Origin: Dehalococcoidia bacterium
GTDB lineage: Bacteria > Chloroflexota > Dehalococcoidia > Lucifugimonadales > UBA2985
DNA: 64,000 bases
Direction of reading: 5' to 3'
NCBI GenBank assembly: GCA_034422115.1
Contig: DAOUJW010000020.1
Span: 41,352-105,351 of the forward strand
Shown: positions 55,073 through 59,680 of the stretch, in pieces
Position numbering within the stretch: position 1 is the stretch's first letter
Layout: each line of letters starts with the position of its first letter
Position numbers and translations under genes: made by a program
Notes under the pieces: generated by a model
Seen by the model: only the letters and a program-made list of their open reading frames with translations
What the model was told of the DNA's origin: nothing
The model's database searches: none

Positions 55073-55342
55073 ATGAGAACTACATTGACACTGGATGATG
55101 ACATAGCAGACGCCCTGCGGGAGCGGGCGCGGCTCACAGACACGCCGTTCAAACGGGTGGTGAATGACGCCCTGAGACAAGGTATGTCTCAGGGGACGGT
55201 GGAAGCCGCTCGCCCGGAGTATCGCGTTGTTCCCAAGCACGGCGGGTTCGCCCCTGGCGTAGATCCGCTCAGACTGAACCAGCTCAACGACCAGCTGATC
55301 GCTGAGGAGACTCTCGGGAAGGACAGGCCGGGCGCGAGTTGA
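55073..55342 (+). CDS. VapB-type antitoxin (RHH)
   Basis: MRTTLTLDDDIADALRERAR...KRVVNDALR; overlaps a PIN gene. Confidence 0.88.
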   Translation: MRTTLTLDDDIADALRERARLTDTPFKRVVNDALRQGMSQGTVEAARPEYRVVPKHGGFAPGVDPLRLNQLNDQLIAEETLGKDRPGAS

Positions 55343-55764
55343 TAATCCCGGACCTCAATCTGCTTGTCTACGCCCACTACGACGGAGCGCCTCACCACAA
55401 GGCCGCCAAGGGCTGGTGGGAGGGCTTGGTCAACGGCTCGGAGCGAGTGGGGGTCCCGTGGGCTGTGGCGACGGGCTTTGTCAGGCTGATGACCCATCCC
55501 AGGGTGGTCACCAATCCGGCAACCCCGGCGGAGGCGATTGACTATATTCAGGAGTGGTTCCGATTTCCCCACGTCATGCCCATCAACCCCGGGACGGACC
55601 ACCTTGCCCACCTCCGGCAGAGCCTTGTCGCGGCCGGCGTCGGCGCTGACCTGGTGACTGACGCACATCTGGCCTCCATAGCTATGGAGTACCAGGCGGA
55701 ACTCCACTCCAACGACGTCGACTTCAGCCGCTTCCCCGGCCTCCGCTGGCGCAATCCCCTCTGA
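55339..55764 (+). CDS. vapC: PIN-domain toxin VapC
   Basis: IPDLNLLVYA, FVRLMTHP, TDAHLA, SNDVDFSRFPGLRWRNPL. Confidence 0.92.
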   Translation: MIIPDLNLLVYAHYDGAPHHKAAKGWWEGLVNGSERVGVPWAVATGFVRLMTHPRVVTNPATPAEAIDYIQEWFRFPHVMPINPGTDHLAHLRQSLVAAGVGADLVTDAHLASIAMEYQAELHSNDVDFSRFPGLRWRNPL

Positions 55765-55808: not shown

Positions 55809-57179
55809 TCAAGCCAGGTGCTGAATGAGCAGAGCGGCCATGCCCAGGAAGATCAGGAAGCCCAGCACGTCGGTAAAGGTGGTCACGAAAACGGCGGAGG
55901 ACACGGCGGGATCCATCCCGAACCGCTTGAGCAGCAGAGGCACGCTGCTTCCGGCAAGGCCCGCCACTATCATGTTGCCCAGCATCGCCGCGCCCACCAC
56001 CACGCCCAGCATGATTGACCCCTTCCAGAAGTAGGCAGCCACGCCCACCGCCGCCGCCAGCAGCATGCCGTGCACCAAGGCCAAGAGAAGCTCGCGGCCA
56101 ATGAGCCGTATGCCGCTGTGCCTGCTTATCTCGCCCAGGGCCATGCTGCGCACCACCAGCGTCAGGGTCTGTGTGCCCGCTATCCCGCCCTGACCGGCTA
56201 CCACGGGCAGGAACACCGCCAGCACCGCCACCTTGGCAATCGTCGACTCAAAGAGGTTGATGACCAGGGCCGCCAGGAACACGGTGCCCAGGTTGGTGGT
56301 CAGCCAGGGCAGCCGGCTGCGGACGGAGTTGCCCAGGGAGGACAGCACCCGCTCACCGGACAGTCCCGCTATTCTGAACATGTCCTCCGTAGCCTCCTCC
56401 TCCATCACGTGCACCACGGCCTCCACGTGGATGATGCCGATGAGCTTGTGCTCATGGTCCACAACGGGCAGATGCCGCAGGTCGTACCGCTCTATCAGGC
56501 GGGCGCACTCCTCCTGGTCGGTCTCCGGCGGCACGGACACTATTTCAGGGCGCATTATGTCCCTGACGATCTCTTCAGTAGGGGAGAGGGCAAGTCGAGT
56601 CACGGTGATGTAACCCAGCAGCCTGCCATCCGCATCGACCACGAAGATGGCGCTGAACTCCTCGGCCCTGCGTCCCAGGAGGCGCAGGACGTCCAGCGCA
56701 ATGCCGGCAGACATGTAGTCCGACACAACCGGGTAGTCTGCAACCATCAGCCCGCCGGCCGTGTCATCCGGGTAGCCCAGCAGAGGGGCTATCTCAGCGG
56801 CCTCCGTCATAACGGCCAGGGTTTCCCGTGACTGCTCGGCGGGAAGGTTTCTCAGGATGTCCGCGGCCACGTCCGGGCGGGTGCGGTCAAGGATCACCGA
56901 GAGCGCCCTTGAGTCGATTCCGGCGGCGATCTCAGAGGACTCTTCCGGGTCGACGCGCTCCAGGATCTGGACGATCTCCTCAACCGAAAGCTCGCTCAGC
57001 AGCGCCTCTTCAAGCTCCAGCAGCACCTCGCCCTGGTCGACGGGGTGCATCTCCTTGAGCAGGGCCACGGCCTCGGCCCTGTTGCCGTCCTCCAGAAGCC
57101 GCAGGACGCGGTCAACCTCCTCGCGCGCCCTCTCCTCTGCGGAAGGCGGCTCTGCGGCGACGTGCTGGTCTTCAGTCAT
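55809..57179 (-). CDS. mgtE: Magnesium transporter MgtE
   Basis: TAGGLM, CBS pair, EEATEDM, RLPWL, GQGGIAGTQ, DPAVSS...TDV. Confidence 0.95.
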   Translation of the reverse strand: MTEDQHVAAEPPSAEERAREEVDRVLRLLEDGNRAEAVALLKEMHPVDQGEVLLELEEALLSELSVEEIVQILERVDPEESSEIAAGIDSRALSVILDRTRPDVAADILRNLPAEQSRETLAVMTEAAEIAPLLGYPDDTAGGLMVADYPVVSDYMSAGIALDVLRLLGRRAEEFSAIFVVDADGRLLGYITVTRLALSPTEEIVRDIMRPEIVSVPPETDQEECARLIERYDLRHLPVVDHEHKLIGIIHVEAVVHVMEEEATEDMFRIAGLSGERVLSSLGNSVRSRLPWLTTNLGTVFLAALVINLFESTIAKVAVLAVFLPVVAGQGGIAGTQTLTLVVRSMALGEISRHSGIRLIGRELLLALVHGMLLAAAVGVAAYFWKGSIMLGVVVGAAMLGNMIVAGLAGSSVPLLLKRFGMDPAVSSAVFVTTFTDVLGFLIFLGMAALLIQHLA

Positions 57180-57934
57180 GGCAGGAACGCTCCGGGCGGA
57201 GGGCTGAGCAGAACAAAGAACTCCCGGTTTCCCTTGCTGCCGGTGATCGGCGAAGGGGTCAGGCCTCTGAAGCGATAGCCGTTGCTTACCGTCCAGGCTA
57301 TGACCCTGGCCAGAACGCGGGCGTGCACCCTTGGGTCTCTGACGACGCCTCCTTTACCGACTTCCTCGCGGCGCGCCTCGAACTGCGGCTTCACCATCGC
57401 GATGATACTCCCGTCATCCCTCAGATGCTCGGTCAAGGACGGCAGCACCCTGGTCACGGATATGAAGGACACGTCCACCGTGGCCAGGTCTACCTTCTCA
57501 GGCAAAGAAAAGGAATGGCGGGCGTTCACCCGCTCCATCACCGTCACCCTGGAGTCCTGCCGAAGGCTGTAGTCCAACTGCCCGTAGCCGACGTCCAGGG
57601 CGTAGACCCGCGCCGCGCCGCGCTTGAGGAGGCAGTCGGTAAAGCCGCCCGTGGACGCGCCCACGTCCAGGGCAACGGCCCCGTCTACGCCCAGGCCGAA
57701 CTGCTCCAGCGCCGCCACGAGCTTGACGCCGCCGCGCCCTATGTACTCAGGCCCCGTGTCCAGGCACACCACGCCCTCCGGCGGCACACGCTCCCCGGGC
57801 GCGGCGGCCGTCCGCCCGTCCACCGTGACCTGGCCCGCCATGATCAGGGCGCGCGCCCTCTCCAGGCTGTCGATAAGCCCCTGATCTATGAGTGTCTGGT
57901 CCAGGCGTCTTGTGTTGGGCCTTCTGTTCGTCAT
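57176..57934 (-). CDS. tlyA: TlyA-family rRNA methyltransferase
   Basis: RRLDQTL (S4 domain), GRGGVKL, DVGASTGGFTD, DVSFIS, KPQFE, GSKGNRE; ATG at 57934. Confidence 0.94.
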   Translation of the reverse strand: MTNRRPNTRRLDQTLIDQGLIDSLERARALIMAGQVTVDGRTAAAPGERVPPEGVVCLDTGPEYIGRGGVKLVAALEQFGLGVDGAVALDVGASTGGFTDCLLKRGAARVYALDVGYGQLDYSLRQDSRVTVMERVNARHSFSLPEKVDLATVDVSFISVTRVLPSLTEHLRDDGSIIAMVKPQFEARREEVGKGGVVRDPRVHARVLARVIAWTVSNGYRFRGLTPSPITGSKGNREFFVLLSPPPGAFLP

Positions 57935-58158
57935 CCTCGCTCTCGACGTGTGGCGCTCTCGCCTATTATGACCCTTCCGCATTGGACTTGTCACCAATGG
58001 CACGACCATAGAGGCGATATCAATGGCGCAGTGGATATTCCGGGGAGAGGCAACGCTTGCGCCAAGAGCCAGGTGCTGTACAATGGACGCGCGGCAGGAG
58101 CTGAATCCCTGACTACGAGGGCATAGCTCCCGCAACGCTATCTGTGGGTGTTAGTCCT

Positions 58159-58317
58159 TTGATAGACTTCCTCAAAAGAGTCCTGGGGTTCTTCAAGAAC
58201 ATGCGCTGGCGGGGTATGCCGTGGCATATAGCGGCTGCGCGCTGGGTTACCAATATGTCGATCAAAGCGAGAAGGCTCAGCATGTGCTGCGGAAATCACG
58301 GGGAGCCGGGCTGTTGA
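58159..58317 (+). CDS. Small Cys-rich protein ending CCGNHGEPGC (not in the ORF track)
   Basis: Open frame from GTG 58144 / TTG 58159 / ATG 58201 to TGA 58317; own promoter TTGCGC-16-TACAAT (58057-58084); downstream hairpins. Confidence 0.65.
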   Translation: MIDFLKRVLGFFKNMRWRGMPWHIAAARWVTNMSIKARRLSMCCGNHGEPGC

Positions 58318-58414
58318 AGGCCCGGACCTCCGCCGGCGTGACCGGCGCGGAACGGAGTACAGAGGGTTGAAGGTGGCCTCGGGAACGGGACGCCGTGGAG
58401 GCGGGGAAGGGAGT

Positions 58415-59680
58415 CTACATATCCTTGGTGAGGGTGGTGAGAAACTCCTTGTTGTTGTTGGTCCTCGCCAGGCGTTCCAGCACCTTCTCCGTCGCCTCCG
58501 TGGACTCCATTGAGCCGGAGGTTATCATTGCCACCATCCGGCGAAGCAGCCACACCTGCCGCAGGGTGTCCGGCTCCAGCATAAGCTCCTCGCGGCGCGT
58601 GCCGCTTCTCTGGATGTCTATGGCGGGGAAGACGCGGCGGTCCGCCAGCTTCCTCTCCAGGTGTATCTCCATGTTGCCGGTACCCTTGAACTCCTCGTAG
58701 ATGACCTCGTCCATGCGGCTGCCGGTGTCGATGAGACATGCGGCCATAATCGTCAGGCTGCCTCCCTCTTCCGTGTTGCGGGCGGCGCCGAAGAAACGCT
58801 TGGGCGGGTAGAGGGCCACGGGATCGATGCCACCGGAGAGAGTGCGGCCGCTGGTTGGCAGCGCAAGGTTGTAGGCCCTGGTGAGCCTTGTAATGCTGTC
58901 GAGCAGGATAGCCACGTGCTTGCCGGACTCCACCAGGCGCTTGGCGCGGTCCAGGGCCAGCTCCGCAACGCGGCAGTGGTCCTCGACCGGGTCGTCAAAG
59001 GTTGAGCTGAACACCTCGCCGTCGACGGAGCGCTTGACGTCCGTCACCTCCTCTGGGCGCTCACCGATCAGGGCGACCATCAGATTGATGTCAGGAGAGC
59101 TGGCAGTAATGCCCTGGGCAATGTGCTTGAGCAGGGTGGTCTTGCCCGCCTTGGGCGGGGAGACGATGAGGCCGCGCTGTCCGCGGCCAATGGGCGCCAG
59201 GAGGTCCATCAGGCGGGTGGAGAGGTTGTCCTTGCCGGTCTCCAGCTTGATCTGGTGGTCGGGGAAGATGGGCGTCAGGTTCTCGAAGTGCGGCCGGCTG
59301 CGGGCGGCGTCGGCATCCATCCCGTTGACGCCCTCGACTCGCACTAGGCCGTAGTACTTCTCGCTGTCCTTGGGGGGGCGCACCTGGCCCATCACCTGAT
59401 CGCCCGTTCTCAGGGCAAACCGCCGAATCTGGGACTGGGAGACGTACACGTCGTTGGGACTGGGCTTGAGGTTGAGCTGTCGGAGGAATCCGTAGCCGTC
59501 GTTGATTATCTCCAGGATGCCGGACGCGAGGATGTAGCCCTGCTGCTCGGCGTAGGTCTGCATCATTCGGAAAACGATCTCGCCCCTTGGCAGCGACGCG
59601 AGGCCGTTCTCCACGCCCATGTCCTTGGCCATGGTTAGAAGTTCCTGCTTGCTCTTTCCGTCCAGTTCAACTAGGTTCAT
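58415..59680 (-). CDS. rho: Transcription termination factor Rho
   Basis: [44 protein letters not shown]. Confidence 0.98.

Follow-up and report, generated by a model that had tools for sequence, protein, structure and literature searches.

The window analyzed in this work is a stretch of 64,000 nucleotides from a Dehalococcoidia bacterium (GenBank assembly GCA_034422115.1, contig DAOUJW010000020.1, positions 41,352 to 105,351 of the forward strand), and the element in question is a small gene located between a tlyA-like gene and rho. Comparative analysis indicates that the in-frame UGA of this gene (58315-58317) very probably encodes selenocysteine (Sec), and that the gene and its relatives make up an uncatalogued selenoprotein family. 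Judging from the sequences compared, this family would span many phyla, its members being about 50-70 residues long and sharing the …CCGxxGxPGC-U… motif, and annotation would always truncate them at …PGC. The original prediction, made from the letters of the window alone, had proposed an independent tiny gene at this place and had mentioned Sec read-through at its GC-TGA end (GCU), some 20 nt ahead of a hairpin loop, only as a speculation; this speculation turned out to be the best-supported reading, TGA being found in 27/27 relatives. The features on which this reading depends are as follows.

58159..58341, + strand: predicted selenoprotein coding sequence, composed of a TTG start, 52 codons in all up to the Sec codon, the Sec codon, 7 codons (RPGPPPA) and a TGA stop (based on homology and codon-position variation).
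58315..58317, + strand: in-frame TGA, predicted to be read as Sec and to give the Cys-Sec dyad …PGC-U (based on relatives, Cys forms and the Sec machinery).
58320..58358, + strand: putative selenocysteine insertion sequence (SECIS), with the core stem 58331-58336/58342-58347, the loop CGUGA 58337-58341 and a lower helix reaching 58320/58358 (based on the fold and relatives).

The small gene and its predicted product

The open reading frame (ORF) is open in frame from GTG 58144 or TTG 58159 to TGA 58315-58317, giving a protein that ends …MCCGNHGEPGC. TTG 58159, with (M)IDFLKR as the N-terminus, is the best start candidate, because this codon lies exactly 52 codons 5' of the TGA in 7/7 species of the genus and is kept in all of them, whereas GTG 58144 falls outside the reading frame of the nearest relative and ATG 58201 is replaced by CTG in another species. 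Over the 52 codons of the genus alignment, variable columns fall at codon positions 1/2/3 in the ratio 18/17/33, i.e., they are enriched at the third position. Judged by its conservation within the genus, this is a real, conserved, stand-alone gene with its own conserved promoter, as had been proposed.

The predicted product is about 60 amino acids (aa) long and reads M-IDFLKRVLGFFKNMRWRGMPWHIAAARWVTNMSIKARRLSMCCGNHGEPGC-U-RPGPPPA, the true stop being, on the Sec reading, the second TGA (58339-58341), which lies inside the SECIS loop. The protein end …CCGNHGEPGC given in the original prediction would therefore have to be revised, since on this reading the chain runs on as U-RPGPPPA to the TGA at 58339-58341. 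In sister species, the extension past the first TGA reads U-R, U-RP or U-KT. A tBLASTn search, of the kind that had been recommended, found homologs. In alignment A3 (89 sequences) the residues C43, C44, G45, G48, P50, G51, C52 and U/C53 are invariant, cysteines 43, 44 and 52 among them, and two Asn are nearly so. An AlphaFold2 model based on the 89-sequence alignment (pLDDT 64.7) comprises helices at residues 2-18 and 22-39 and an irregular or disordered C-terminal tail. The helical part is strongly basic, with a pI of about 12 for the core and a family median of 11.9. In 23/102 members a Cys is found among the first 8 residues, frequently in the form "MC…", and several members have His-rich N-termini.

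Stop codon usage, cysteine twins and putative read-through tails

One alternative assumes that the product is an ordinary small Cys-rich protein ending …EPGC, that the TGA is its stop and that the hairpin behind it is a terminator or an mRNA-stabilising structure shared with rho. Against an ordinary stop speaks the finding of the unbiased tblastn search, in which TGA directly followed …PGC in 27/27 significant relatives, though it is a minority stop codon: the long ORFs of this genome end with TAG in 49%, TGA in 37% and TAA in 14% of cases. It is worth mentioning that TAG as the commonest long-ORF stop in a genome of 61.8% GC is unusual for a GC-rich bacterium, and this preference may be linked to the extensive employment of UGA as a Sec codon in Dehalococcoidia.

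When 185,579 species genomes were scanned with a degenerate DNA pattern, at least 98 unique TGA-form members were found; the counts of TGA forms out of 98 given in this work refer to the matches listed. In these 98 forms, the frame after the TGA is open for 0-61 codons, and the final stops are mixed (TGA 48, TAG 37, TAA 13). The frame-0 extensions contain 14.7% His and 19.4% Asp+Glu, compared with 2.5-2.7% and about 9%, respectively, in the other two frames, and examples of such tails are …HHHHHHHHHH… (H10) and (SHDHGA)×6.

When 241 M metagenome records were scanned specifically for TAA/TAG, only one clear member with a TAA stop at the Sec position emerged, plus one distinct pseudogene-like sequence found on two contigs. 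The latter (L174/L187) has TAA at the Sec position, a retained SECIS-like hairpin, a His-containing downstream frame and an upstream in-frame stop, and has the appearance of a former Sec form decaying into a pseudogene.

At the position of the TGA codon, TGT/TGC was found in L085, L089, L159, L161, P0002, P0005, P0015, P0020, P0041, P0043 and P0060, and also in 6 Dehalococcoidia genomes, with the flanks conserved on both sides. These Cys-form homologs run on as "C-E-stop" or "C-E-G-S-S-…-H-S-H…". One such pair is formed by P0060 (…GCCVGPDGSGSDPHDHDHDH; longer stretch …CCGNHVEPGCCVGPDGSGSDPHDHDHDH), which is the Cys twin of the Sec form L062 (…CCGNHGEPGCUVGTDESGPDSHGHDDHDH). In addition, the entries P0049, P0063 and P0068 read …PGC-W-… into His-rich tails, which may reflect either a TGA translated as Trp under an alternative code in gene calling or a genuine TGG.

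The putative SECIS hairpin

The hairpin CGCCGG-CGTGA-CCGGCG, noticed 3' of the TGA in the original prediction, is present at 58331-58347, where it forms a 6-bp upper stem with a UGA-to-loop distance of 19 nt and a minimum free energy (MFE) of -20.4 kcal/mol; the UGA 58339-58341, taken here as the real stop codon, falls in its apical loop. The bacterial SECIS (bSECIS) model of Zhang & Gladyshev comprises a loop of 3-9 nt, an upper stem of 4-16 bp, a distance of 16-37 nt from the UGA and a G in the first two loop positions, with an MFE ≤ -7.5 kcal/mol (PMC13188914). The window hairpin satisfies all four bSECIS constraints given in PMC13188914, with G and then U at loop positions 2-3. Across the genus, GCCGGCGTGNCCGGC at the SECIS is invariant.

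The same arrangement was observed throughout the family. A GC-rich hairpin with a stem of 5 bp or more, whose loop starts 19-28 nt after the U of the UGA, occurs in 92/98 TGA forms (shuffles 14.7±3.5), the mode of the loop start being 22-26 nt and the loops reading CGUGA, GGUC, GUC, GUG, GUU or GGN. No equivalent hairpin was found in the Cys forms (0/4). For the SECIS alignment, from which 3 sequences misaligned by MAFFT and 2 further sequences were excluded, 20 sequences selected for a hairpin in the same register were compared: G23 and U24 are invariant, double-sided changes occur in 7/7 stem pairs, and the covariation of 30 cells was matched by 0/500 shuffles and collapsed in slid controls.

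A T-tract (≥5 T in 10 nt) follows the hairpin in only 1/92 cases and is missing behind the window hairpin, which argues that these structures are not intrinsic terminators; the terminator scan called none at 58331-58347 either.

Co-occurrence with the Sec machinery

The genome from which the window derives possesses tRNA-Sec, selB (358.8 bits), selA (573 bits) and selD (383 bits). Its selD (contig C17:164048-164971, - strand, locus L191) is itself a selenoprotein gene with an in-frame TGA (…LANCAG-U-ASKF…) and a SECIS, GGCGCAG-GUC-CUGCGCC, whose loop lies about 33 nt past the UGA; tRNA-Sec is localized on the same contig (C17:187082-187177).

Among 61 close genomes, the family was found in 23/49 SelB-positive and 0/12 SelB-negative ones (p=0.0016). 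In the larger set of 401 Dehalococcoidia genomes, of which 292 encode SelB, family and SelB were both present in 143, the family alone in 15, SelB alone in 149 and neither in 94. Inspection of 14 of the 15 genomes with the family and without SelB (G070 was left out) revealed that seven carry Cys-type forms (…PGC-C-E/D-stop, or GC/YC variants) and have neither the hairpin nor selA. The other seven inspected genomes have TGA forms and, counting G070, selA is present in 7/8, which suggests that SelB was merely missed in those metagenome-assembled genomes. The partition of the Sec form with Sec users and the Cys form with non-users is nearly perfect.

Several observations weigh against the recoding reading. 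Firstly, G422, a 98%-complete Dehalococcoidia genome, carries a TGA form with a good hairpin (L200), and neither selA nor selB is detectable in it; either the Sec genes are absent from the bin, or this copy is a relic, or else a variant in which the UGA truly terminates. Secondly, the co-occurrence over the 401 genomes (odds ratio 6, p=1.8e-11) takes no account of phylogeny. Thirdly, the sequences of the covariation subset were picked for a hairpin in a single register; this exaggerates the degree of pairing but leaves the variety of pair types unaffected. Furthermore, the single-sequence fold of the window hairpin is unexceptional (z = -1.38), so that its significance stems from the comparison with relatives, and the structure model of the protein is of low confidence (pLDDT 64.7). 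In the genus, the extension past Sec counts only 1-8 residues and has no His tail; termination at the UGA would thus yield a protein that is hardly different, and a fraction of the ribosomes probably terminates there. Finally, the neighborhoods described below give no functional clue, and the metal or redox role is proposed from motif composition alone.

Some of these points also favor an ordinary stop followed by a terminator or stabilising hairpin: the genus frame is open only 1-8 codons past the TGA, the GC-rich sequence folds readily (z = -1.38), the hairpin sits between two convergent genes, and gene callers stop the protein at …EPGC in every database entry. A terminator is nevertheless difficult to reconcile with a hairpin that keeps a fixed distance from the TGA in many phyla, whatever the neighboring genes are, that has no T-tract in 91/92 cases, that in most members lies within a long His-rich in-frame extension and that is absent exactly where the codon is Cys. 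The TGA forms moreover track the Sec machinery, and an ordinary stop is considered improbable.

Distribution of the family and its annotation

Within 60 related genomes, significant tblastn homologs are present in 7/7 members of the genus and across many further genera of the order, with 2-3 paralogs per genome in some cases. The matches listed in the pattern scan come from Chloroflexota (Dehalococcoidia, Anaerolineae and Chloroflexia), Actinomycetota, Dormiibacterota, Armatimonadota, Desulfobacterota/Thermodesulfobacteriota, Nitrospirota and Latescibacterota. In Dehalococcoidia, the family is present in 158/401 genomes (about 40%) and 85/223 genera. Tandem arrays of 2-3 diverged paralogs, about 290-370 bp apart, were observed at loci L047, L084, L110, L120, L137 and L149, where every copy is equipped with a TGA and a SECIS of its own, and some tails are His-rich, others acidic.

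A profile search against 1.84 billion representatives of 50%-identity clusters gave 529 matching representatives, which range from 40 to 143 aa. Of the best 150 matches, about 137 stop exactly at profile position 52, i.e., at the Cys before the TGA, a pattern characteristic of gene callers that truncate the protein systematically. No domain fusions were found among the 529 representatives, the longer matches being N-terminal over-calls. When a canonical member was used as the query of a word-index protein search, 40 proteins were retrieved, every source name of which was "hypothetical protein"; the same search with the divergent window protein gave no match.

The family also seems to be missing from the existing catalogues. 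For the window protein and 6 canonical members, searched with C in place of U, Pfam and NCBIfam gave no match at E ≤ 10, and two sub-threshold matches in these searches were due to chance. A 2026 inventory lists 119 selenoprotein families and subfamilies (PMC13188914, Table 1), and the small-gene family is not among them. The models cited in that paper (SaoC, KCU-star, UXX-star, MbdU, CC/Se-motif, OS_HP3 and DG/DW/DF) did not match it, and motif strings including the pattern 'CCGxxGxPGC' were not found in the searchable literature of 8.4 M papers.

Genomic neighborhood and possible function

All-against-all clustering of the neighbors over about 98 loci revealed no conserved neighbor, only lineage-specific housekeeping genes (leuB/leuD, mdh, and rho/tlyA in the window genus only); neighbors of the SDR, ADH and YhhQ types are likewise confined to particular lineages. 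A cluster of ABC-transporter neighbors at 11 loci was rejected as a candidate: it consists of unrelated ABC ATPases which are 26-40% identical and stand at varying positions and on varying strands.

These results bear on the suggestion of the original prediction that the C-terminus could be the core of a ribosomally synthesised and post-translationally modified peptide (RiPP). Such a precursor of a RiPP or bacteriocin would have the Sec-containing core CCGxxGxPGCU, a dedicated maturation enzyme and export, as in selenobacteriocin or radical-SAM peptide systems; its small size, the Cys-rich C-terminal 'core' and the tandem arrays of 2-3 paralogs in some genomes fit this idea, and a Sec-containing class does exist (Selenobacteriocin, TIGR04081; PMC13188914). 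Over the approximately 98 loci, however, there is no recurring radical SAM, YcaO, lanthipeptide or protease gene, nor any other conserved maturase or neighbor, and the apparent ABC-transporter neighbors are the unrelated ATPases mentioned above. The NCBIfam search, TIGR04081 included, gave no match, the conservation takes in the whole basic N-terminal region and not a variable core, and the His-rich tails come after the supposed core. The RiPP reading is not supported, and we regard it as very unlikely.

A further alternative treats the peptide itself as irrelevant. The ORF would then be a Se-sensing leader peptide or upstream ORF, in which Sec insertion reports the supply of Sec-tRNA and controls expression downstream or antisense (rho). 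The UGA indeed stands near the end of a short ORF and is followed by structured RNA, and in the window genus the gene is convergent with rho. The amino-acid sequence is, however, highly conserved between phyla, 8 residues being invariant, the downstream genes differ at every locus, hairpin-less Cys forms exist in organisms not using Sec, and the tails have a protein-like, frame-specific composition. Taken together, this leaves the leader-peptide explanation with hardly any probability.

For the Sec-containing protein, we infer, with moderate confidence, a cytoplasmic role in metal binding or in thiol/selenol redox chemistry. Metal binding is slightly favored over a pure redox function because of the His tails in many homologs; the window member itself has no His-rich tail. 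The metal-binding or redox peptide of the original prediction thus remains plausible, and this part gained strength from the His-rich tails of the homologs, its basis still being motif composition only. More tentatively, and with somewhat less than even probability, the protein may be a selenolate-containing metallochaperone or metal buffer, in which CC…CU would form a four-chalcogen site assisted by His-rich tails and Se would act as a metal ligand and not as a redox catalyst.

Proposed mechanism

According to the proposed model, the gene would be transcribed from its own promoter (58057-58084) and translated from TTG 58159. SelB·GTP·Sec-tRNASec would be recruited to the UGA at 58315-58317 by the hairpin 58331-58347, whose loop CGUGA begins 19 nt past this codon, so that Sec is inserted, and translation would stop 7 codons past Sec, at the UGA within the SECIS loop. 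The product would consist of two basic amphipathic helices followed by a Gly/Pro-rich loop, which may bring the vicinal Cys-Cys beside the vicinal Cys-Sec (C-C-G-x-x-G-x-P-G-C-U). The four chalcogen ligands brought together in this way could hold a soft or transition metal, the protein serving as its chaperone or buffer, and/or undergo redox cycling via a Cys-Sec selenenylsulfide in the manner of the GCUG end of thioredoxin reductase.

Promoter, leader and flanking genes

The remaining features of the locus are as follows.

58057..58084, + strand: predicted promoter of the small gene, with the -35 box TTGCGC (58057-58062), a 16-nt spacer and the -10 box TACAAT (58079-58084), read from the sequence.
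58091..58158, + strand: putative 5' untranslated region (UTR) of about 68 nt, holding the hairpin GGAGCT…AGCTCC (58097-58130); the transcription start site is inferred from the -10 box.
57179..57934, - strand: tlyA-like gene (S4 + FtsJ methyltransferase), divergent from the small gene (Pfam PF01728, 2.1e-41; PF01479, 4.4e-8).
58415..59680, - strand: rho, convergent with the small gene, its stop codon lying 57 nt past the SECIS (Pfam Rho_RNA_bind, 3.9e-33; ATP-synt_ab, 7.3e-27).

The promoter TTGCGC-16-TACAAT was located exactly where it had been predicted. Comparison of the species revealed that its TGCTGTACAATG block is unchanged in 7/7 species of the genus and TTGCG nearly so; the generic consensus scan missed this promoter, because its -35 box fits the consensus at only 3/6 positions. 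The leader hairpin GGAGCT..AGCTCC (58097-58130), also described previously, is present in the sequence and is common to the window species and its nearest relative only, the other leaders of the genus folding differently. As it is not kept beyond the closest relative, its role as a conserved regulatory element was ruled out. Rfam covariance models gave no match at E ≤ 1 on either strand of 57000-59500, and the tRNA scan of the window found no tRNA.

About 30 nt upstream of the tlyA-like ATG there is a promoter-like site, GTGACA-18-CATAAT (57994-57965, - strand), which is sigma-70-like with 10/12 matches. This promoter is divergent from that of the small gene, so the 480-bp spacer has two back-to-back promoters. 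The gene order rho / small gene / tlyA is kept within the genus only. Further away, at 55073-55764 (+ strand), an overlapping pair of an 89-aa ORF (no Pfam match) and a 141-aa PIN-domain protein (PF01850, 1.7e-7) was observed, which resembles a VapBC-type toxin-antitoxin module and adjoins mgtE (55809-57179, - strand).

Significance and comparison with known systems

If the Sec reading is true, few bacterial selenoprotein families still uncatalogued would be smaller or more widespread than this one, and its SECIS would also encode a linker or, as in the window, carry the true stop codon in its apical loop. As selenoproteomes are tallied by family and an abundant one has been truncated or missed in annotation, the selenoproteome sizes of Chloroflexota and several other phyla are probably underestimated, and a simple annotation rule may be proposed: …CCGxxGxPGC, then TGA, then a hairpin at +19 to +28. 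The window gene would offer a clear case from nature in which Sec stands one to a few residues before the C-terminus, the SECIS extends into the 3' UTR and the stop lies in its loop, a location which bears on termination by SelB-bound ribosomes. The CC…CU site combined with His-rich tails suggests a new use of selenium for metal handling, for which the natural Cys twins could act as built-in controls.

Among the known proteins, the closest in concept are the C-terminal CU or 'star' selenoproteins, i.e., SaoC (Cys-Cys-COOH, NF040734), KCU-star/DUF466 (NF033934), UXX-star (NF041114, NF041211) and MbdU (NF045648), in which Sec has been proposed as a metal ligand (PMC13188914). These have likewise a CU dyad or a Sec a few residues from the stop, and their SECIS necessarily extends past it. 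They differ from the small gene in showing no sequence relationship with it (hmmscan, all NCBIfam + Pfam, E ≤ 10), its product being composed of two basic helices plus CCGxxGxPGCU, and in that it has no Sao-type or other conserved neighborhood.

The His/Asp-rich termini and clustered thiolates of the family resemble those of His-rich metallochaperones and Cys-rich metal binders. The His tails of the HypB/SlyD/UreE type, the C-terminal CC pair of MerA and metallothionein-like proteins serve in the handling of Ni/Zn/Co/Cu or Hg. In contrast to these, the window member has no His tail, no homology to them was detected and metal genes are not consistently adjacent.

The -Gly-Cys-Sec-Gly end of mammalian thioredoxin reductase is a flexible tail in which an eight-membered selenenylsulfide ring can form and shuttle electrons. 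The small protein shares with this GCUG end a vicinal Cys-Sec after Gly on a C-terminal tail, but it would be a stand-alone protein of about 60 aa without the flavoprotein domain and has an extra CC pair 7 residues upstream, and its SECIS is of the bacterial and not of the eukaryotic 3'-UTR type.

The closest parallel in mechanism is bacterial UGA/SECIS recoding, with fdhF of E. coli as the paradigm. The system has the same parts, namely an in-frame UGA with a stem-loop, selA, selB, selD and tRNA-Sec, a loop opening with G followed by G/U, and also a G/U at about nt 23-25 from the UGA, resembling fdhF, in which, according to work of the Böck laboratory, G23/U24 are reportedly essential. It differs from fdhF-type recoding in that the Sec codon of the small gene is near the C-terminus and that in the genus the SECIS lies mostly in the 3' UTR, with the stop in its loop, whereas in other members it is translated as a P-G-R-G-P or E-A-P-G-G-S linker before the His-rich tail. 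The recoding mechanism itself is the standard bacterial one, and it is the protein family that, on the comparisons made here, appears to be new.

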